The position numbers and the translations under genes are program-made. Below, piece by piece: positions 37,715 to 45,511 of a stretch of 64,000 nucleotides of DNA; position 1 is the first letter of the stretch, and every line of letters begins with the position of its first letter. The stretch lies in IMG/VR virus record IMGVR_UViG_2718217789_000006, one strand, 5' to 3'. Under the pieces are notes generated by a model. The model had not been told where the DNA came from. It did not search any database and worked only from the letters and a program-made list of their open reading frames with translations. Origin of the DNA: a virus. Its lineage: Duplodnaviria > Heunggongvirae > Uroviricota > Caudoviricetes.

Positions 37715-37743
37715 ACTGATTCCTCGCGGTGCTGTTTCGCTTA

Positions 37744-37872
37744 TCAGCCGTTAGATTTTGCCGAACTGGAAAGCGCCTGTTTAAATTCGTTGAAGCTGAG
37801 AGCTTCTTCGCCTTCGGCAAGACCTTCGAAGTATTCTTCGTAAGCCTTTTCCATGATTGTGTCGAAATCCAT
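37744..37872 (-). CDS. YdfA-like small protein (42 aa)
   Basis: Minus-strand translation MDFDTIMEKAYEEYFEGLAEGEEALSFNEFKQALSSSAKSNG; start 1 nt downstream of the preceding gene's stop; below ORF-track cut-off. Confidence 0.4.
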   Translation of the reverse strand: MDFDTIMEKAYEEYFEGLAEGEEALSFNEFKQALSSSAKSNG

Positions 37873-37873
37873 A

Positions 37874-38110
37874 TCACTCACCTGAGTTTCTTTCCAGCCA
37901 GCGACGGGCACCATTTTCGGTTTTAAACGTTTTGCTTTTGGTATACGTCATCGCGGTGAACGTACCGTCCTGGTTGGGGAACACGCCACATACCAGAGAT
38001 TCGCTGTTGCCAAGATCGATAGTATCCATGCTGACCTCATTTCCCCTTAACGCCGGGGTAGCGGAACAAAAACCTGCTGCATAGTTATTAAAGTTGAACC
38101 CTGCCGTCAT
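37874..38110 (-). CDS. Hypothetical early-left operon protein (78 aa), first gene after the left operator region
   Basis: ORF immediately downstream of the OL-like operators. Confidence 0.45.
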   Translation of the reverse strand: MTAGFNFNNYAAGFCSATPALRGNEVSMDTIDLGNSESLVCGVFPNQDGTFTAMTYTKSKTFKTENGARRWLERNSGE

Positions 38111-38215
38111 GTTCTTACGCCTCGGGCTGGCTACTTAACCCCTGACCACTGCCTGGTAACTCGAAGTATTGCCCTGCATTCTGTGGGGCGGGGTGGGTTG
38201 GTATGAAAAGAAGGA

Positions 38216-38252
38216 TACCCATAGGTATTTAAAAAGTAAATACCCATGGGTA
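38216..38252. promoter_or_regulatory. OL-like operator pair (TACCCATAGGTA and TACCCATGGGTA) overlapping a leftward promoter
   Basis: Two 12-bp TACC-N4-GGTA sites 13 bp apart at 38216..38227 and 38241..38252; minus-strand TTTACC-17 nt-TAAATA promoter-like elements overlap them. Confidence 0.5.
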
Positions 38253-38294
38253 AATTTTTGCGGTGTCTTAACTGGTGACTAGTTGTTTGGTGAG

Positions 38295-38714
38295 CTATGA
38301 TGCGTTTTGTGCTTTCTTTTTACGGATTTCTTCGTAGATCATATTGTAATACTGTTTTTTCTCTTCAAGAGTTTTTAATAATTTATCCGCTTCACTTTCT
38401 GGCAGTTCGTCTAAGAGATCTAAAAAAATACGTTGTCGTGGCGTTAGAACCCTTGTTTCATAACTGGAGGCTGTGTTCGTTGATGATGAAACGATACCAT
38501 CCATCCATCCCCGGGGTAACCCAAAGGACTCTTCGATAATCTCCACCATATCATCAGCGATCCGTTTTTTTCCCTTTTTCCCCTCTGGGTACAACATTCT
38601 TGATACATAAGAAGGCTCGCGCCCGATCTTTCTGGCCACGTTAACCGCTTTACCATCGCATTTCTCATCACGAATTTTGATGAGTTGCTGTCGTCTAAAT
38701 TCATATTTGTCCAT
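38295..38714 (-). CDS. Immunity repressor, DicA/RacR-like, lacking a C-terminal peptidase domain
   Basis: 139 aa; HTH …NVARKIGREPSYVSRML…; C-terminal …LTPRQRIFLDLLDELPESEADKLL… resembles the DicA C-terminus; divergent to the cro-like gene. Confidence 0.6.
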   Translation of the reverse strand: MDKYEFRRQQLIKIRDEKCDGKAVNVARKIGREPSYVSRMLYPEGKKGKKRIADDMVEIIEESFGLPRGWMDGIVSSSTNTASSYETRVLTPRQRIFLDLLDELPESEADKLLKTLEEKKQYYNMIYEEIRKKKAQNAS

Positions 38715-38734
38715 AGGTAAATAATAGATGCGAT

Positions 38735-38785
38735 TACCGCAAGGTAAACAACCTGTGGGTATTGGCTTTTGTTTACCTGTGGGTA
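38735..38785. promoter_or_regulatory. OR-like operator cluster between repressor and cro-like genes
   Basis: Three TACC-N4-GGTA-type sites (TACCGCAAGGTA 38735..38746, AACCTGTGGGTA 38750..38761, TACCTGTGGGTA 38774..38785) in the 100-bp divergent intergenic region. Confidence 0.5.
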
Positions 38786-38814
38786 TTCTTTGCTGTGTTT
38801 ACTAAGGAGTAGCT

Positions 38815-39096
38815 ATGGAAGAATTAAGAATATTTCTCAATTCTCTTTCGTCAGATGAACAGCGTATGTTTGCATGCGAGTGTGGTACCAGCATCGGTTA
38901 TCTAAGAAAGGCATTGAGTAAAGGTCAAGTGTTAGGGGCATCGTTATGTGTCCTTATTGAGCGAGCCAGTAATGGTGAAGTTACACGTCAGCAACTAAGG
39001 CCTTTTGATTGGATGAATATTTGGCCCGAGCTGGAAGATACCAAAACGTTAACACAACCACTTTCTAGGAGCTTGATTCATGAAAATCAAGCATGA
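38815..39096 (+). CDS. Cro-like regulator (YdaS/DicC family)
   Basis: 93 aa; …ASNGEVTRQQLRPFDW… resembles YdaS-type proteins; AAGGAG RBS. Confidence 0.55.
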   Translation: MEELRIFLNSLSSDEQRMFACECGTSIGYLRKALSKGQVLGASLCVLIERASNGEVTRQQLRPFDWMNIWPELEDTKTLTQPLSRSLIHENQA

Positions 39097-39505
39097 ACAC
39101 ATCCGCATGGCGATGAATGCCTGGGCGCGTCCTGATGGCGAAAAAGTTCCAGCAGCTGGAATAACCCAGGCTTATTTTGAGTTGGGTATGACGTTCCCAG
39201 AACTGTATGACGACAGCCATCCGGAAGCCCTGGCTCGCAATACCCAGAAAATTTTCCGCTGGGTAGAGAAAGACACCCCTGATGCTGTTGAAAAAATGCA
39301 GGCTCTGTTACCGGCGATCGAAAAGGCGATGCCGCCTTTGCTGGTGGCCCGTATGCGCAGCCACAGTTCTGAATATTACCGTGAGATCGTCGAACGGAGG
39401 GATCGGCTGGTGAAGGATGTCGATGATTTTGTTGCGTCAGCGGTTGTTTTGTATGACCAGATGAATCGCGGCGGCCCGGCAGGGAATGCTGTGGTGATGC
39501 ACTAA
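39080..39505 (+). CDS. YdaT-like (CII-analog) protein
   Basis: 141-aa ORF overlapping the cro-like 3' end, in the position of Rac ydaT. Confidence 0.45.
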   Translation: MKIKHEHIRMAMNAWARPDGEKVPAAGITQAYFELGMTFPELYDDSHPEALARNTQKIFRWVEKDTPDAVEKMQALLPAIEKAMPPLLVARMRSHSSEYYREIVERRDRLVKDVDDFVASAVVLYDQMNRGGPAGNAVVMH

Positions 39506-39527
39506 AAGCACGGTGTTCGGGGGTTTT

Positions 39528-40490
39528 ATGAGCAGCAAGCTTCATGGTCTTGTCTGGGAAGGGTGCGCCTTCACCGGCATGATCTTATCCAGGGTGGCGG
39601 TTATGGCCCGTCTTGCAGACTACAGCAATGACGAGGGCGTGTCATGGCCTGCCATTGAAACTATCCGGCGTCAGATCGGTGCAAGAAGTGAATCCACAGT
39701 GAAATCGGCTATTGCAGAACTGGCGAAAGAGGGCTGGCTGACGAAGGAAGAGCGTAAGGTCGGTGGGCGTAATGTAAGCAATATCTATCGGCTTAATGTG
39801 GAAAAACTCGAAGCAGCTGCGGCGGCGGCGCGTGAGTCATATAAACCGAAAAGAAAAATTAGCCCGGCAAAAAATGACCCGTTAACAGTTGACCCGTCAA
39901 ATATTGACCCCTCAACGGTTGACCCGTCAAATTTTGATGGATCAACTGTTGATAACAAACTGCCGATTAGGGGGGCGATGATTGACCCCGATCCGTCAGT
40001 ATTAAAACCTGATCCGTCAGATAAAAGATCTTCTTGTCCGGACGCTTCGCAACCGGACCCGCAGACGGCTGAACAGGATTTTTTAACCCGACACCCTGAC
40101 GCGGTTGTGTTCAGTGCGAAAAAACGCCAGTGGGGAAGTCAGGAAGATTTGGTGTGCGCACAGTGGATCTGGGGACGAATCGTGAGTCTTTACGAGCAGG
40201 CGGCCAGCTATGATGGCGAGATCACTAGACCGAAAGAACCCAACTGGACAGCATGGGCCAATGACGTTCGCACAATGCGGATGCTGGATGGCAGAACTCA
40301 CAGACAAATTTGTGAAATGTTTGGGCGTCTCCAGCGGGATTCGTTCTGGGTAAAAAACATCATGAGTCCGGCAAAACTCCGGGAAAAATGGGATGAACTG
40401 GTTATCCGCCTGGGGCGTTCGCCTGCGCAGCGTTGCGTGAATCACATTTCTGAACCGGACACTGAAATACCGCCGGGATTCAGGGGGTGA
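39528..40490 (+). CDS. Replication initiator (lambda O-like function)
   Basis: N-terminal winged-helix-like region; direct DNA repeats (iterons) inside the gene; followed by a DnaC-like loader. Confidence 0.65.
   Translation: MSSKLHGLVWEGCAFTGMILSRVAVMARLADYSNDEGVSWPAIETIRRQIGARSESTVKSAIAELAKEGWLTKEERKVGGRNVSNIYRLNVEKLEAAAAAARESYKPKRKISPAKNDPLTVDPSNIDPSTVDPSNFDGSTVDNKLPIRGAMIDPDPSVLKPDPSDKRSSCPDASQPDPQTAEQDFLTRHPDAVVFSAKKRQWGSQEDLVCAQWIWGRIVSLYEQAASYDGEITRPKEPNWTAWANDVRTMRMLDGRTHRQICEMFGRLQRDSFWVKNIMSPAKLREKWDELVIRLGRSPAQRCVNHISEPDTEIPPGFRG
39875..39945. repeat. Origin-like iteron array inside the initiator gene
   Basis: Four to five 12-mers of the form TTGACCCGTCAA / TTGACCCCTCAA at about 15-bp spacing, encoding DP(L/S)TVDPSN peptide repeats. 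Confidence 0.6.
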
Positions 40491-40496
40491 CGTGTC

Positions 40497-41243
40497 ATGA
40501 AAAACATTGCGGCAGTTGGGGTTCTTGAACGTATTCGCAGACTTGCACCACAGGGGCCGGTTCCACCGTACCGGACGGTGGAGGAGTGGCGGGAATGGCA
40601 ACTTGCTGAAGGACGAAAACGCAGCGAGGAGATTAACCGCCAGAATCGCCAGTTGCGGGTGGAAAAAATCCTGAATCGTTCGGGCATCCAGCCTCTGCAC
40701 AGCAAATGCTCGTTTGCAAATTATCAGGTGCAGAACGACGGGCAAAAATACGCGCTGAGCCAGGCCAAATCCATAGCTGACGAACTGATGACCGGGTGCA
40801 CGAATTTTGTGTTCAGCGGTAAAACCGGCACCGGGAAAAATCACCTTGCAGCGGCGATGGGCAACCGGCTGATGGTGAAGGGGCGCAGCGTGATTATCGT
40901 CACCGTGTCTGACGTCATGAGCGTGTTGCATGACAGCTACGACAACGGCAAATCCGGGGAAAAATTTTTACAGGAGCTTTGCGGGGTTGATTTGCTGGTC
41001 CTGGATGAAATAGGCGTTCAGCGGGAGACGAAAAACGAGCAGGTGGTATTGCACCAGATAATTGATCGCCGGACAGCATCACTGTGCAGTGTCGGGATGT
41101 TAACAAACCTGAATCATGCCGCAATGAGTACGCTTCTTGGTGAGAGGATTATGGACCGCATGACCATGAACGGTGGTCGATGGGTGACGTTTAACTGGGA
41201 TAGCTGGCGTCCAAATGTCAGCAATATGAGGGTTGTGAAGTAA
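40497..41243 (+). CDS. DnaC-like helicase loader (AAA+ ATPase)
   Basis: Walker A GKTGTGKNHLA, Walker B LLVLDEIG. Confidence 0.8.
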   Translation: MKNIAAVGVLERIRRLAPQGPVPPYRTVEEWREWQLAEGRKRSEEINRQNRQLRVEKILNRSGIQPLHSKCSFANYQVQNDGQKYALSQAKSIADELMTGCTNFVFSGKTGTGKNHLAAAMGNRLMVKGRSVIIVTVSDVMSVLHDSYDNGKSGEKFLQELCGVDLLVLDEIGVQRETKNEQVVLHQIIDRRTASLCSVGMLTNLNHAAMSTLLGERIMDRMTMNGGRWVTFNWDSWRPNVSNMRVVK

Positions 41244-41264
41244 TTTTGTCCGGAGGAAATTTTA

Positions 41265-42035
41265 ATGGAAACCGTATCTGACGCACTGAAAGCACTGAAA
41301 AAAGCCTCTTCACATGTGGTGGCAGCTCGCCTTGGAATCAGTCGTGAAGAGGCTGTCAACGAGCTGTGGGAACTCAAAAGAAAAGGCGTCGTTGATAAAA
41401 CTGGTCACACCTGGTTTCTGGCTGGCGAAGGTGAATCCCGGGTAACCGAAGAGCGGCCAGTAAAATCTGAAGCACAGGATATGCTGACCGGGGAGGTCGA
41501 ACAAAAAGTTACCGCAGACATGATGATTGAGTTTATCGGTCAGGATGGGGCTAAAACGTGTGAGGAACTGGCGGGTAAGTTCGGTGTCAGTACTCGCAAG
41601 GTTGCTTCCACGCTGGCGGTGGTAACCGCAACGGGGCGGCTGGCACGCGTTAATCAGAACGGTAAATTTCGTTACTGCATGCCGGGCGATAATTTACCAG
41701 CAGAGCCGAAAGCCGCGCTGGTAACGGAAAGTGATGGTAAGGCCTTTCCTCAGCCAGCAGGTGCTGCGTTACCAGTCCGGGAAGCCGCAACACAGGAAGA
41801 AATTAAAACAGAAACTGTGGCGGACATTGTGCAGCCGTTGCCATCGTTTACCGAAACGCAAGCAGATGAGCTGATTTTTCCGTCCCTTCGCAGGGCAAAC
41901 CTGGCGCTGCGCAGGGCGAAAAGTGATGTTCAGAAGTGGGAGCGAGTCTGCGCCGCGCTGCGGGAGCTGAACAAGCACCGGGATATTGTTCGACAGATTA
42001 CTGATTCTTCCCGCCGTGTTGTATCGGAAAAGTGA
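41265..42035 (+). CDS. Hypothetical nin-region protein (256 aa)
   Basis: ORF with AGGA RBS; two N-terminal HTH-like segments by eye. Confidence 0.5.
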   Translation: METVSDALKALKKASSHVVAARLGISREEAVNELWELKRKGVVDKTGHTWFLAGEGESRVTEERPVKSEAQDMLTGEVEQKVTADMMIEFIGQDGAKTCEELAGKFGVSTRKVASTLAVVTATGRLARVNQNGKFRYCMPGDNLPAEPKAALVTESDGKAFPQPAGAALPVREAATQEEIKTETVADIVQPLPSFTETQADELIFPSLRRANLALRRAKSDVQKWERVCAALRELNKHRDIVRQITDSSRRVVSEK

Positions 42036-42476
42036 TTGCCGGAGGCGCTTATGGCAAAAGCATTTACACAAGAAGAGCGGGAAAAAATTAAAGGGCAGGT
42101 TGTTGAACTTGTACGTCTGAGCGGTCGCGAGACGTTGCGGCAACTGGAAGCCAAGACAGGTGCGACAAGATATCTGATGAGTGTTCTCGCCAGAGAGCTG
42201 GTTGCCAGTGGCGATGTATACAACTCTGGTTACGGGTTATTCCCGTCTGAACAGGCGCGTAAGGACTGGCAAAATGCTCGCAAAAAACTCTCAAGGGCAA
42301 AGGTGAAGAAACCTGCAGTGGTTGATCCGGACCTTATCTGGTCGTTACCAGACGGCGAAATACGCCGCTACGACAGGCGCCTGAATATAATCTGTCGCGA
42401 GTGCCGGAAGAGCGAAGCTATGCAGCGTGTACTGGCATTTTATCAAGGAAATGTTAGGTATTTTAGACGTTACTAG
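42036..42476 (+). CDS. Hypothetical nin-region protein (146 aa)
   Basis: ORF directly abutting the previous gene. Confidence 0.45.
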   Translation: MPEALMAKAFTQEEREKIKGQVVELVRLSGRETLRQLEAKTGATRYLMSVLARELVASGDVYNSGYGLFPSEQARKDWQNARKKLSRAKVKKPAVVDPDLIWSLPDGEIRRYDRRLNIICRECRKSEAMQRVLAFYQGNVRYFRRY

Positions 42477-42629
42477 ATTAAAGAGCATTAGTTCAGATGT
42501 GAATTGACATTTTCATGGCGCAGGGTAGAGCCAGCGCGGTTGTCCGCTTTGCGTCAAAACCAGATATTACCAGATTTAGACATATATTCCCGATAGCCCT
42601 GCTCTGATGCTACACTCTGTGCTATTTTC

Positions 42630-43316
42630 ATGACCCCAATAAAAATATTTATGACTATTGCTGATTTCAAACGGCCTAAATTGGAGCTCCCAAACGGGGC
42701 AAACAAACTACTACTGCACTCTTGCTGTGCTCCATGTTCCGGTGAAGTGATGGAGGCGCTTCAGGCCTCGGGAATCGACTACACCATCTTTTTCTACAAC
42801 CCGAACATTCATCCTCAGAAAGAGTATTTAATTCGTAAGGATGAAAATATTCGCTTTGCTGAACAACACGGCGTGCCGTTTATCGATGCTGATTACGACA
42901 CCGACAACTGGTTTGAACGTGCCAAAGGAATGGAATGGGAGCCTGAGAGGGGGATCCGTTGTACCATGTGTTTTGACATGCGTTTTGAGCGGACAGCGTT
43001 GTACGCTGCTGAAAATGGTTTCAGTGTGATCAGCAGTTCACTGGGCATTTCACGCTGGAAAAATATGCAGCAGGTTAACGAGTGTGGGCGGCGAGCTGTT
43101 GCGCATTATCCGGGTATGGTGTACTGGGATTATAACTGGCGCAAGCAGGGCGGCTCGTCCCGTATGATTGAAATCAGCAAGCGCGAAAAATTCTATCAGC
43201 AGGAATATTGTGGCTGTGTGTATTCTCTGCGCGATACCAATCTACACCGCAAATCTCAGGGACGCCCTCTTATCAAAATTGGCCAACTCCACTACGGAAA
43301 AGAAGAGAAGGAGTGA
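42630..43316 (+). CDS. QueH-like (DUF208) epoxyqueuosine-reductase family protein
   Basis: …[14 protein letters not shown]… and downstream Cys motifs ([16 protein letters not shown]) match the remembered DUF208/QueH signature. Confidence 0.6.
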
Positions 43317-43494
43317 TTTTATGGATCACCTTTCTGATTGATTTCATATTGGCGAGGTGACGTGAGTTAAGTAGAATTGCTGCGGGTGCCTGAGGCTGTC
43401 TGCCTCAGGCATGAACACCAAAAGGCAGATAGAGAAAGCCCCAGTTAACATTACGCGTCCTGTAAGACGCTCAACATTAATCTGAGGCATATGG

Positions 43495-44619
43495 ATGCGG
43501 ATGAAAGAATTAAATAAATTCAGAGTGATAGACCTCTTTTGTGGGGCAGGTGGATTATCTTATGGTTTTCTTCATGGAGAGATGTCTGACTACTTTGAAA
43601 GTATCCTTGCTATTGATAATAATGCTGCAGCTATAAATACCTACAATGCCAATTTTGGTTTGCATGGAGTTCAGGCAAATATTGAGGAGTGGGCATCCAG
43701 CAATACTGTTCCTGAGGCTGATGTGGTCATAGGTGGCCCCCCGTGTCAGGGATTCAGTTTATTGAATAAGAATCGTTATGGTGATCACCGAAGAGCATTG
43801 TGGGAGCCTTATATGGATGTCATTGAGCGTTCAAGGGCTTGTATGTTCGTCATGGAAAATGTCCCCGGATTGCTGATAAGCGATGAGTTTGCGGACATTA
43901 CGTTTAGAGCGAAATCCATGGGCTTTATTCTGCTTAATCCAATGGTGTTGAATACTGCTGACTATGGAGTACCTCAGACAAGAAAACGAACGATAGCAAT
44001 CGGTATCAAACGAGAACTCTTCGATGTGCATAGTATTCCGGCGTTCCCGCCAGCACCAACGCATCGTTCCCCTGATAAGGATGTCGCTTTGCCTGAATGG
44101 GTCTGTACGCGTGATGCAATTGGTGACTTACCTGCTCCTGTTGGAACTGATATTCGTAATGAACTTCCTCCGCTGAACTTACATTTTGGGCGTAATCCCA
44201 CACCTGTTTCTCTGGAGCGATATAAAGCGGTTCCACCAGGAGGTAACCGTTTCGATTTACAGAAAAAAAGACCTGATATAACCCCGGCGTGCTGGCTAAA
44301 AAAGAAATCTGGAGGGACCGATTTGTTTGGACGTCTGTGGTGGGACAGACCTTCAGTAACGATTCGTACTGAGTTTTTCAAACCGGAGAAAGGGCGATAT
44401 TTACATCCGGAAGAGGATCGGCCAATAACTCATCGTGAGGCAGCGAGATTAATGTCTTTTCCTGATAATTTCATTTTTACCGGTTCAAAAACTGAGATTG
44501 CAAAGCAGATCGGGAATGCTGTTCCACCGCTATTTGCGGCAAAAATCGCACAATATGTGTATGGAGTTTTGCAGGGACGGTATAAGAATAACATCAGTAA
44601 GAATAGTCAAGCAGCCTGA
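43495..44619 (+). CDS. DNA cytosine-5 methyltransferase
   Basis: Motif I DLFCGAGG, motif IV GGPPCQGFS, motif VI ENVPG; GAGG RBS 7 nt upstream. Confidence 0.85.
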   Translation: MRMKELNKFRVIDLFCGAGGLSYGFLHGEMSDYFESILAIDNNAAAINTYNANFGLHGVQANIEEWASSNTVPEADVVIGGPPCQGFSLLNKNRYGDHRRALWEPYMDVIERSRACMFVMENVPGLLISDEFADITFRAKSMGFILLNPMVLNTADYGVPQTRKRTIAIGIKRELFDVHSIPAFPPAPTHRSPDKDVALPEWVCTRDAIGDLPAPVGTDIRNELPPLNLHFGRNPTPVSLERYKAVPPGGNRFDLQKKRPDITPACWLKKKSGGTDLFGRLWWDRPSVTIRTEFFKPEKGRYLHPEEDRPITHREAARLMSFPDNFIFTGSKTEIAKQIGNAVPPLFAAKIAQYVYGVLQGRYKNNISKNSQAA

Positions 44620-44632
44620 AGGAAATCCAGAA

Positions 44633-45511
44633 ATGAATGGAGATTTGGTTGACAGCATAGTTGGTTTTGCTGAAGCCAGAAAGGAGTTTCATGCCCAATT
44701 GTTACTGAATACGCTCACAATTAATACTGCCGGAGTTGTTAGTAACGCAGATAGCAGTAACAAAAACAGTAAAGCTATAGCAAGAGAAATTGCTCGCTTC
44801 TTGCAGGCTGAAACGATTGGTGAACGTGTTGCAGGGCAAACATCTGGTAATCAGTTTGAGAGTATCTGCGCAGAGTTTATAGAAAAAACCTTTTTTAAAC
44901 TCAGCCACTTACGCCCTGGAAAATGGAATGTACATCAGGTTTCTGGTAGAAACAGATTAGAGATAGCTAAATATGAACAATATGCCCATCTTATAGCATT
45001 GGATAGTGCTGCAAAAAGTAATCCTCAGCTAGCTGCTGCACTGGGGAGTGATTATACGATTTCACCAGATATTATTGTTGAAAGAGAACCTGAATGTGAT
45101 CAAGTTATCAACAGTCCTGAATTACTGGTGGATGATTCTGTTACCCGCATGTCAGCTCTCAGGAGTTCGAATGGTGGGAAACCAATATTACACGCAAGTA
45201 TTTCCTGCAAATGGACAATAAGAAGCGACCGGGCCCAGAATGCTCGTTCTGAGGCATTAAATCTTATTCGCAACCGTAAGGGAAATCTCCCTCATGTAAT
45301 GGTTGTTACTGCTGAGCCTACTCCAAGTCGTCTGGCGTCTATTGCTCTTGGTACTGGTGATATAGATTGCGTGTATCATTTTGCGCTTTATGAACTTATA
45401 TCAGCAGTTGAAATACTGGGGCTCAGCGATGCAGCTGACATGCTTTCCGTGATGGTTAATGGTAAAAGATTAAAGGATATTTCTGATCTTCCCTTGGATC
45501 TTGCAGTCTGA
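44633..45511 (+). CDS. Putative type II restriction endonuclease paired with the methyltransferase
   Basis: 292-aa ORF starting 13 nt after the methyltransferase stop with AAGGA RBS; PD…K-like segment (…SPDIIVERE…ISCKWT…); assignment by context. Confidence 0.45.
   Translation: MNGDLVDSIVGFAEARKEFHAQLLLNTLTINTAGVVSNADSSNKNSKAIAREIARFLQAETIGERVAGQTSGNQFESICAEFIEKTFFKLSHLRPGKWNVHQVSGRNRLEIAKYEQYAHLIALDSAAKSNPQLAAALGSDYTISPDIIVEREPECDQVINSPELLVDDSVTRMSALRSSNGGKPILHASISCKWTIRSDRAQNARSEALNLIRNRKGNLPHVMVVTAEPTPSRLASIALGTGDIDCVYHFALYELISAVEILGLSDAADMLSVMVNGKRLKDISDLPLDLAV

Follow-up and report, generated by a model that had tools for sequence, protein, structure and literature searches.

A short-period iteron array inside the initiator gene of an O157:H7-type lambdoid prophage as the probable core of its replication origin

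What is a row of palindromic repeats doing in the middle of a gene for a replication initiator? The question is raised by a 64,000-nucleotide stretch of caudoviricete DNA (IMG/VR record IMGVR_UViG_2718217789_000006; the whole of this stretch is called the window below), in which a core array of five 12-bp units at 39874-39945 lies inside a replication initiator gene on the plus strand (39528-40490; 320 amino acids from the RefSeq ATG, as in the list of open reading frames [ORFs]). In RefSeq the product is labelled only 'helix-turn-helix domain-containing protein', and the origin is unmarked in public records. We argue that the array very probably represents the iterons, or initiator-binding sites, of a lambda-type origin that lies within the initiator gene of the prophage itself, a reading that draws on the sequence of the window together with that of its homologues.

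The five palindromic units stand in an exact 15-bp register: ATGACCCGTTAA (39874-39885), TTGACCCGTCAA (39889-39900), TTGACCCCTCAA (39904-39915), TTGACCCGTCAA once more (39919-39930) and TTGATGGATCAA (39934-39945), the last of which reads as the consensus motif, TTGATCCATCAA, on the other strand. Within each unit there is dyad symmetry in the form of an inverted repeat, TTGAC-CC-GTCAA, and both direct reading of the sequence and two repeat finders place units 1-4 in one orientation and unit 5 in the opposite one. The register is continued on either side by a degenerate unit, namely TTAGCCCGGCAA upstream (39859-39870; three mismatches to the consensus), which is preceded by an A-rich tract at about 39843-39873 (AT skew 0.53), and TTGATAACAAAC downstream (39949-39960), in which the left half-site alone is retained. 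A preliminary description of this DNA had given coordinates, unit length, spacing and copy number for the array, all of which proved correct both by sequence reading and with the repeat finders. Such a row of units is far beyond chance. When a match was defined as at most two mismatches to the 12-mer consensus, five matches were observed in a 75-nt span, compared with a maximum of two in 300 first-order-Markov random sequences of 64 kb, and outside the array the consensus recurs at this tolerance at only one place in the whole window on either strand (10063).

The repeats do lie inside the initiator ORF, as had been described, and they are in frame with it, whether it is read from 39528 or from an alternative in-frame GTG start upstream at 39513, with five codons per unit. 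The five good and two degenerate units (39859-39960) make up codons 111-144 of the 320-codon gene, and the corresponding 15-nt in-frame rows are ATTAGCCCGGCAAAA at 39858 (peptide ISPAK), AATGACCCGTTAACA at 39873 (NDPLT), GTTGACCCGTCAAAT at 39888 (VDPSN), ATTGACCCCTCAACG at 39903 (IDPST), GTTGACCCGTCAAAT at 39918 (VDPSN), TTTGATGGATCAACT at 39933 (FDGST) and GTTGATAACAAACTG at 39948 (VDNKL). This arrangement invites a simpler explanation, in which the repeats are a slippage-prone coding repeat, that is, a linker of xDPSx pentapeptides under selection at the protein level, if any, and without a function of the DNA in cis. Apart from the reading frame, such an explanation could appeal to the lengths of close Escherichia coli homologues, which are 320, 315, 310 and 305 amino acids, with whole units lost in slippage-like steps of five residues or multiples thereof, and to the predicted disorder of the segment.

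Comparison across homologues bears directly on this point. A genome scan yielded one homologous locus from each of 80 species of Escherichia, Shigella, Citrobacter, Enterobacter, Erwinia, Pantoea, Edwardsiella, Morganella, Providencia, Proteus, Yersinia, Rahnella and other genera; units were counted in 73 usable genes, codons were aligned for 70 genes and DNA for 69 homologous segments. The linkers of the homologues carry 3-11 TGA-N4-TCA units, mostly 5-6, with exactly 15 bp between successive units in 289 of about 360 pairs, and the motif has a density of 12.7 per kb in the linker as against 0.85 per kb across the loci. In subfamily A, which has the same type of N-domain as the window (MSSKLHGLVWEGCA..; 10 genes), the unit consensus is (A/G)TTGA-SSSS-TCAA, with CCCC at the centre 19 times and GGGG 18 times. 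In subfamily B (MSTKLTGYVWD..; 63 genes, with phages SfII, SfIV and phiNP, and phiP27 as a more distant member), it is A-TCTGAC-NCR-TCA-(A/G)-AA, which encodes SDxSK; here TGA and TCA are fixed and the unit centre varies, a position-specific conservation that a coding repeat would not lead one to expect. Either strand can carry the 12-mer, for example in Edwardsiella, where GTTGACCCCCCAAAT stands beside GTTGAGGGGTTAACG, or in Morganella (TTTGAGGGGTCAAAT), and the peptide D-P-S/P then becomes E-G-S/L. These flips between DP and EG, with the 12-mer kept on the opposite strand, are accounted for only by selection on a double-stranded binding site; selection on the peptide would not yield them.

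Codon usage points in the same direction. Among the units of the window, codon 1 is GTT, ATT or TTT (TT is constant and the residue varies) and codon 5 is AAT, ACG or ACT (A is constant), and serine in residues 124-164 is encoded by TCA in 6 of 6 cases, compared with 2 of 22 elsewhere in the initiator gene. In the codon alignment, conserved positions have a relative codon entropy of 0.5-1.0 in residues 2-98 and past residue 173, and of about 0.0-0.3 in residues ~102-170. When the window's gene was compared with its relatives, separately for subfamilies A and B, amino acid identity was 0.74 and 0.63 in the N-domain (residues 2-98), 0.46 and 0.32 in the zone with the repeats (residues 102-170) and 0.52 and 0.24 in the C-domain (residues 176-300), and the fraction of shared residues with an identical codon was 0.40 and 0.38, 0.78 and 0.82, and 0.44 and 0.39, respectively. 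The zone with the repeats is thus the least conserved part of the protein in subfamily A and lies between the two domains in subfamily B, yet its shared residues have by far the most conserved codons (0.78-0.82 vs 0.38-0.44). Because shared codons vary least where the protein varies most, the comparison shows that the repeats are under selection at the DNA level, independently of the encoded peptide. Given that, in addition, the units are palindromes as DNA, we regard the coding-repeat explanation as highly unlikely, notwithstanding the frame and the five-residue steps.

Low divergence at the DNA level could also have arisen in another way, through the recent horizontal spread of a linker cassette at a mosaic joint that acts as a recombination hot spot. 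Lambdoid replication genes are indeed mosaic: the C-terminal half of the initiator gene is 86% identical in DNA to that of phages mEp460, HannyBb and PhiR42_1, whose N-terminal halves differ, which places a mosaic joint at or just past the proposed origin, and homologue P0070 changes its C-domain right past the linker. However, a recently spread cassette should show uniform similarity, instead of which amino acid identity falls to its low values of 0.46 and 0.32 and particular nucleotides are fixed. Unit number, order and orientation vary between species, and the pattern spans genera from Escherichia to Providencia, Morganella, Erwinia and Yersinia. We therefore give the cassette very little credence.

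If the repeats are selected as DNA, which protein do they serve? The type of repeat changes together with the N-domain of the initiator. The unit flanks read RTTGA..TCAA (V/I-DPS-N/T) in subfamily A vs TCTGA..TCAAAA in subfamily B, and at the equivalent position in the gene, initiators whose N-domains are only 39-41% identical carry tandem units that are 21-24 bp long and unrelated in sequence, namely CCCCTGTGCCGCCAGAAAGCACAC in Salmonella phage S107 (4.5 copies), CCCTGTGCCACCAAAAAGCACAGC in Pectobacterium phage ZF40 (4.4 copies) and GGTGGGGCAGGAGCTGCCCAGG in the Stx phage Min27 (2.9 copies). Different N-domains accompanied by different repeats at one location are the classical signature of a specificity module of initiator and origin. 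The prophage resembles SfII, SfIV and the Stx2e phage phiP27 (L17/L18) in its initiator family (N-domains 51-66% identical) and in its gene architecture. In phiP27, gene L17, which is annotated as 'unknown' (L166, 2846-3025), has TCTGAACCGTCAGAA-type units with a 15-bp period and, after them, TTTGACCCTTCAGAATCTGG sites and GATCC repeats; the genes that follow L17 encode a DnaC-like loader and a DnaB-like helicase. As SfII, SfIV and phiP27 are isolated phages, this type of module is presumably functional; the repeats of their modules are unannotated in the records, and our searches found no paper describing them. A 'P27' origin with a lambda-like O and six iterons has been reported (PMC7466680) which is unlike phiP27 L17, and the two names may denote different phages or modules.

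The same covariation bears on the idea that the units bind some other protein, such as a Cro- or cII-like protein of the prophage or a dimeric host regulator, and are unrelated to replication. TTGA-N4-TCAA does look superficially like the palindromic operators of helix-turn-helix regulators. However, the motif tracks the type of initiator N-domain across phages with unrelated immunity regions, the operator-like repeats of this prophage have a different sequence (ATACCCAYAGGT), and the spacing misfits the established consensus sequences of FNR (TTGAT-N4-ATCAA) and CRP sites. An FNR- or CRP-type operator was rejected on account of this misfit in half-site spacing, and we consider a non-replicative binding partner of any kind exceedingly improbable.

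Several other candidates in and around the array were set aside. An Rfam scan of 38000-42600 at E <= 1 gave chance-level microRNA and long non-coding RNA matches only, one of them at 39884-39950 and caused by the overall dyad symmetry of the array. A minus-strand ORF at 39785-39958 (57 amino acids) mirrors the palindromic repeats and was not taken as a gene. A sequence resembling a DnaA box, TTATCAACA (39947-39955, minus strand), differs from the consensus at one position, and relatives do not conserve it.

The initiator itself is, by sequence comparison, a mosaic in which an HTH_36 specificity module is combined with a C-domain of the lambda-O type and a tail of the YdaU type. It matches Pfam HTH_36 (27.8 bits) and, weakly, DnaD_N, it has no Pfam match to Phage_rep_O at E <= 0.01, and from end to end it matches phrog_391, 'replication initiation O-like' (E 2e-115). 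The C-domain is 35% identical to lambda O over 148 residues and 36% identical to phi80 gp15 over 124 residues (E 5e-26 in both cases), and BLASTP gave no alignment of the N-domain to either protein. An AlphaFold2 model built from a 21-sequence alignment, with residues numbered from the upstream GTG, has a winged helix-turn-helix domain at residues 8-109 (pLDDT about 80-89), a low-confidence segment at residues 113-183 (pLDDT about 30-40), which is presumably a disordered linker, and a helical C-domain at about residues 205-300. According to this model, the array falls in DNA coding for an interdomain linker that is predicted to be disordered. A Foldseek search likened the N-domain to ArsR/MarR/PadR-type winged-helix DNA binders, i.e., to a generic winged-helix fold. 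The last 19 codons (40431-40487) encode the tail RCVNHISEPDTEIPPGFRG, ending in ..IPPGFRG, and these 19 residues are the sole part of the initiator in common with YdaU of the K-12 Rac prophage (68% identity). The tail may be a loader-docking peptide; lambda O reportedly cannot do without its last five residues (PMC6022878). Homologues with other C-terminal tails, ..EGWRDVL and ..EAWENTL, also exist.

How far does the locus follow the plan of lambda? In lambda, a flexible linker joins the DNA-binding N-terminal domain of O to its C-terminal domain, which binds P (PMC6022878, PMC7466680). As in ori-lambda, the repeats of the prophage lie between the DNA-binding N-domain and the C-domain, and the loader gene follows directly downstream in the early-right operon; dyad-symmetric repeats within an initiator coding sequence are likewise found in phi80 gene 15, in phage 82, in P22 gene 18 and in phage L gene 18. 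The lambda record has four annotated iterons at 39034-39118, or 348-432 nt into gene O, with start-to-start distances of 20, 24 and 23 bp, and the phi80 record has four annotated gp15 sites 364-440 nt into gene 15, spaced by 20-21 bp. In the prophage the first repeat begins 346 nt into the gene, compared with 348 nt in lambda and 364 nt in phi80. The likeness to ori-lambda inside gene O that the preliminary description had drawn is thus borne out by the O-like C-domain, by the matching position and by the adjoining DnaC-type loader.

The differences are equally clear. Unlike lambda, the prophage has an N-domain of the HTH_36 type without a Phage_rep_O match and a loader of the DnaC/IstB type instead of the lambda-P type; its units of 12 bp on a 15-bp period contrast with 18-19 bp on 20-24 bp in lambda and with 15-16 bp on 20-21 bp in phi80. 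The lambda-type period of about two helical turns (20-24 bp) was not found, the period being 15 bp both here and throughout the family. Copy number ranges from 3 to 11 among relatives, with units in either orientation, compared with four iterons in lambda and six in Stx phages (PMC7466680). A lead towards phi80, taken from a Pantoea homologue named 'Replication protein 15', was rejected, as gp15 has only the C-domain in common and both its N-domain and its four sites differ. The pairing of a lambda-O-type C-domain (39984-40490) with a DnaC/IstB-type loader (40497-41243), and not with a lambda-P-type one, can also be noted here.

Conservation at the DNA level does not stop at the last unit of the array. 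The full conserved element covers 39831-40037, about 200 bp or initiator codons ~102-170, over which synonymous sites are frozen, and this zone is continuous from the units, some 100 bp beyond them, into a tract of low stability. According to the alignment of segments, the phased array is followed by a variable spacer of 20-25 bp and then by one or two more units. In the window, these correspond to a second, degenerate cluster of sites at 39967-39993, made up of TTAGGGGGGCGA (39967-39978) and TTGACCCCGATC (39982-39993), where relatives carry good units, GTTAAGGGGTCAATGGTTGACCCC or TTTTGACCCGTCAGAATCTGG. Past the extra units there is a conserved block, GGGGATCCGTCAGTAAATTCAAAACAAGATCC(G/A)TCAGATAAAA..CTTCTTGTC (39986-40038 in the window), with two direct repeats of GATCCGTCAG at 39990-39999 and 40011-40020, which are 21 bp apart and resemble an iteron half-unit; the first of them is more than 90% conserved across the initiator family. 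The stretch at 39995-40035, GTCAGTATTAAAACCTGATCCGTCAGATAAAAGATCTTCTT, has about 33% G+C, lies about 50 bp from the main array and has the lowest stability of any 40-mer in the replication genes (nearest-neighbour value -48.3 vs a mean of -56.6, standard deviation [sd] 4.3), which makes it a candidate DNA-unwinding tract. Past the last site, the DNA of this family can be aligned with that of lambda and phi80 around AAAAGATC-TTC(G/T)T, the block AAAAGATC-TTC being shared with phi80, and the candidate tract is on the promoter-distal side of the repeats. The tract contains GATC sites at 40011 and 40027, and a third lies just before it at 39990, so that three Dam sites fall within 41 bp, the first of them more than 90% conserved across the family; the cluster hints at control by Dam and SeqA, as at oriC. 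The proposal that the element is the replication origin of the second prophage in the window is, then, supported by DNA-level selection and by the lambda-like position, and the span proposed for it has to be enlarged, to about 39831-40037.

A further reading accepts that the initiator binds the units but assigns them mainly to control, through copy-number or incompatibility titration, handcuffing or a roadblock to transcription or translation, with opening of the DNA elsewhere. Plasmid iterons are established as having dual roles, the number of units among relatives is variable (3-11), the adjoining tract is just moderately AT-rich, and good binding in Stx phages was confined to the four iterons closest to the AT-rich tract (PMC7466680), all of which would be compatible with such an assignment. 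However, between 38000 and 43000 we found no other repeat cluster or conserved non-coding element besides the operator-like pairs of the immunity region, and there are no further copies of the motif elsewhere in the prophage. The frozen zone, moreover, runs unbroken into the tract which aligns with the post-iteron tracts of lambda and phi80. A purely regulatory array with its origin elsewhere is, in our view, improbable.

Two other kinds of origin are worth comparing. The Rac prophage of K-12, which reportedly has an active origin, oriJ (PMC3945230), has the same operon layout (ydaS-ydaT-ydaU-ydaV in Rac; YdaS-like, YdaT-like, initiator and loader genes here), and its ydaU also has internal repeats, about 350-470 nt into the gene. 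Unlike the initiator of the window, YdaU has a DUF1376 N-domain in place of HTH_36, its body is not alignable, and its repeats (AACAGATGTTCAA, with 33-bp spacing) are unrelated to the array. The possibility that the array is a copy of oriJ was ruled out, YdaU being a different (DUF1376) initiator. In the Rac locus itself (L002, 4472-4588), the ydaU repeats are of the AAGCAGATGTTCAA type with 33-bp spacing and are accompanied by inverted copies, TGTTCAAACA/TGTTTGAACA; they are a candidate for the position of oriJ at the sequence level. The iteron origins of plasmids such as pSC101, R6K, RK2, P1 and F share with the array closely spaced sites for a winged-helix initiator, variable in number, beside an unwinding element. 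Theirs, however, are direct repeats of 17-22 bp in one orientation with a period of ~22 bp, and they lie beyond the rep gene, in most cases with DnaA boxes alongside, whereas the sites here are 12 bp long, palindromic, in either orientation and translated within the gene.

Taking the array as the core of an embedded lambda-type origin, we can outline how it might work. Derepression of the prophage would start rightward transcription and so yield the initiator, whose N-terminal winged-helix domain would bind the palindromic TTGA-N4-TCAA units, probably as dimers. On 5-7 closely packed sites this would build a multimeric nucleoprotein complex, and strain from the complex could open the adjoining low-stability, GATC-containing tract at ~39995-40035. 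The lambda-O-like C-domain and the IPPGFRG tail would then bring the loader (40497-41243), carrying host DnaB, to the opened DNA. Transcription across the region may activate the origin, and the GATC cluster may couple it to Dam and SeqA. Initiator binding and its stoichiometry, the site of unwinding, the recruitment of the loader and the activity of this particular prophage copy are all steps that we infer by analogy with ori-lambda.

Several points weigh against the locus being such an origin, or at least an active one. In the open literature that we searched, neither initiator binding nor origin firing has been reported for this family. The centres of the half-sites are ~7 bp apart, and the 15-bp period (~1.4 helical turns) departs from the 20-24 bp found in lambda, phi80, S107, ZF40 and Min27. 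Given the unit size, this period, the use of either orientation and the variable copy number, the geometry of the lambda O-some is not simply transferable. The candidate tract is only moderately AT-rich, 1.9 sd above the mean, and far less extreme than the 39-bp tract of lambda (PMC6022878). The second cluster of sites is degenerate in this E. coli clade (TTAGGGGGGCGA vs TTAAGGGGTCAA in relatives). Finally, there is the state of the prophage to consider. Of the Sakai prophages, Sp10 circularises, replicates and is packaged, and for Sp11 and Sp12, in which the int and repressor genes are disrupted, no excision and no replication was seen (PMC2669165). With an NleG-carrying prophage in tandem directly upstream, the arrangement here recalls Sp11-Sp12, and if the prophage studied here corresponds to Sakai Sp12, no excision or replication has been detected for it (PMC2669165).

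The unusual period also admits a different picture of the complex itself. Because a 15-bp period gives an unbroken lattice of TTGA/TCAA half-sites every 7-8 bp, the initiator could conceivably polymerise into an uninterrupted filament or helical array that occupies the faces of the DNA in alternation, instead of into a lambda-style O-some of discrete dimers two turns apart. We hold this to be a tentative and on the whole doubtful possibility. If it were true, the origin would be strained and opened by a mechanism of another kind, in which the in-frame gain or loss of units (3-11) could, over evolution, rapidly tune origin strength or the incompatibility of co-resident prophages, and the flips between DP and EG would offer a clean natural case of a protein segment whose sequence is imposed by a DNA element acting in cis.

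To find distinct iterons within O-like genes, as in P22 and phage L, is routine in genome annotation (PMC8022706), and an element of this kind is conceptually expected here; the textbook plan of lambda is extended, not overturned. Literature searches with the motif string and on iterons of lambdoid and DnaC-type prophages, the Eru classification of replication regions and serotype-converting phages found no description of the array, which is thus apparently an undescribed member of the known class of lambdoid origins that lie within an initiator gene. What is new with respect to that class is the 15-bp period, the units in either orientation and the variable copy number. The analysis assigns a probable origin to a replication module that occurs widely in prophages of Enterobacterales and in phages such as SfII, SfIV and phiP27, and which in E. 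coli O157:H7 belongs to the class of prophages with DnaC-type loaders. A defined origin could enable mini-replicon and incompatibility tests among the many co-resident prophages of O157, and could improve the forecast of which 'defective' prophages still replicate in situ and thereby amplify neighbouring virulence genes. It also provides a convenient natural setting in which to study the influence of a cis element on the coding sequence with which it overlaps.

As for the wider setting, the 4.3 kb around the repeats (38200-42500) are 100% identical to chromosomes of E. coli O157:H7, and a scan of viral contigs returned only O157-type copies with 98-99% identity, which added no diversity. The window from position 1 to ~32000 is the tail end of a first lambdoid prophage. 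The second prophage begins with an integrase gene on the minus strand (32076-33371) and extends rightwards, with the array in its early-right operon. Its immunity and early-right control region (38295-39505) comprises a repressor-like gene on the minus strand (38295-38714) and, on the plus strand, a Cro/YdaS-like gene (38815-39096) and a cII/YdaT-like gene (39080-39505); rightward transcripts from this region would traverse the origin. Downstream of the initiator gene, and likewise on the plus strand, lie the gene for the DnaC/IstB-type AAA+ helicase loader (40497-41243; Pfam IstB_IS21, 7.5e-19; phrog_50 'DnaC-like helicase loader', 9e-82), which is presumed to be the partner of the initiator and is 80% identical to YdaV of K-12 Rac over all 248 residues, a DUF1627 gene (41265-42035) and a DUF977 gene (42036-42476).

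An operator-like 12-13-mer occurs in four copies (ATACCCAYAGGT / ACCTGTGGGTATT; 38751-38787 and 38215-38252), arranged as two pairs. The copies of one pair are 24 bp apart in the intergenic region between the repressor and cro genes (38751-38787), and the other pair lies immediately past the 3' end of the repressor gene (38215-38252), in opposite orientation and with a distance of 25 bp between its copies; the two pairs are probably the OR-like and OL-like operators of the prophage immunity system. In the early-left region, a frameshifted DUF1482 pseudogene lies by dicB (37729-37926; RefSeq), which is one sign of partial decay of the second prophage; the ORFs of the initiator, the loader and the integrase are intact in the window. 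At the end of the first prophage (~29494-31898), three tandem DUF1076 (NleG-like effector) genes and a DinI-like gene abut the integrase of the second. Further along the early-right operon (~42651-45511) there is a gene for a QueH-like epoxyqueuosine reductase (42651-43316). After it come the genes for a C5 cytosine methyltransferase (43501-44619) and for a type II restriction endonuclease of the NgoMIV family (44633-45511), and these two form a complete restriction-modification system carried as prophage cargo.

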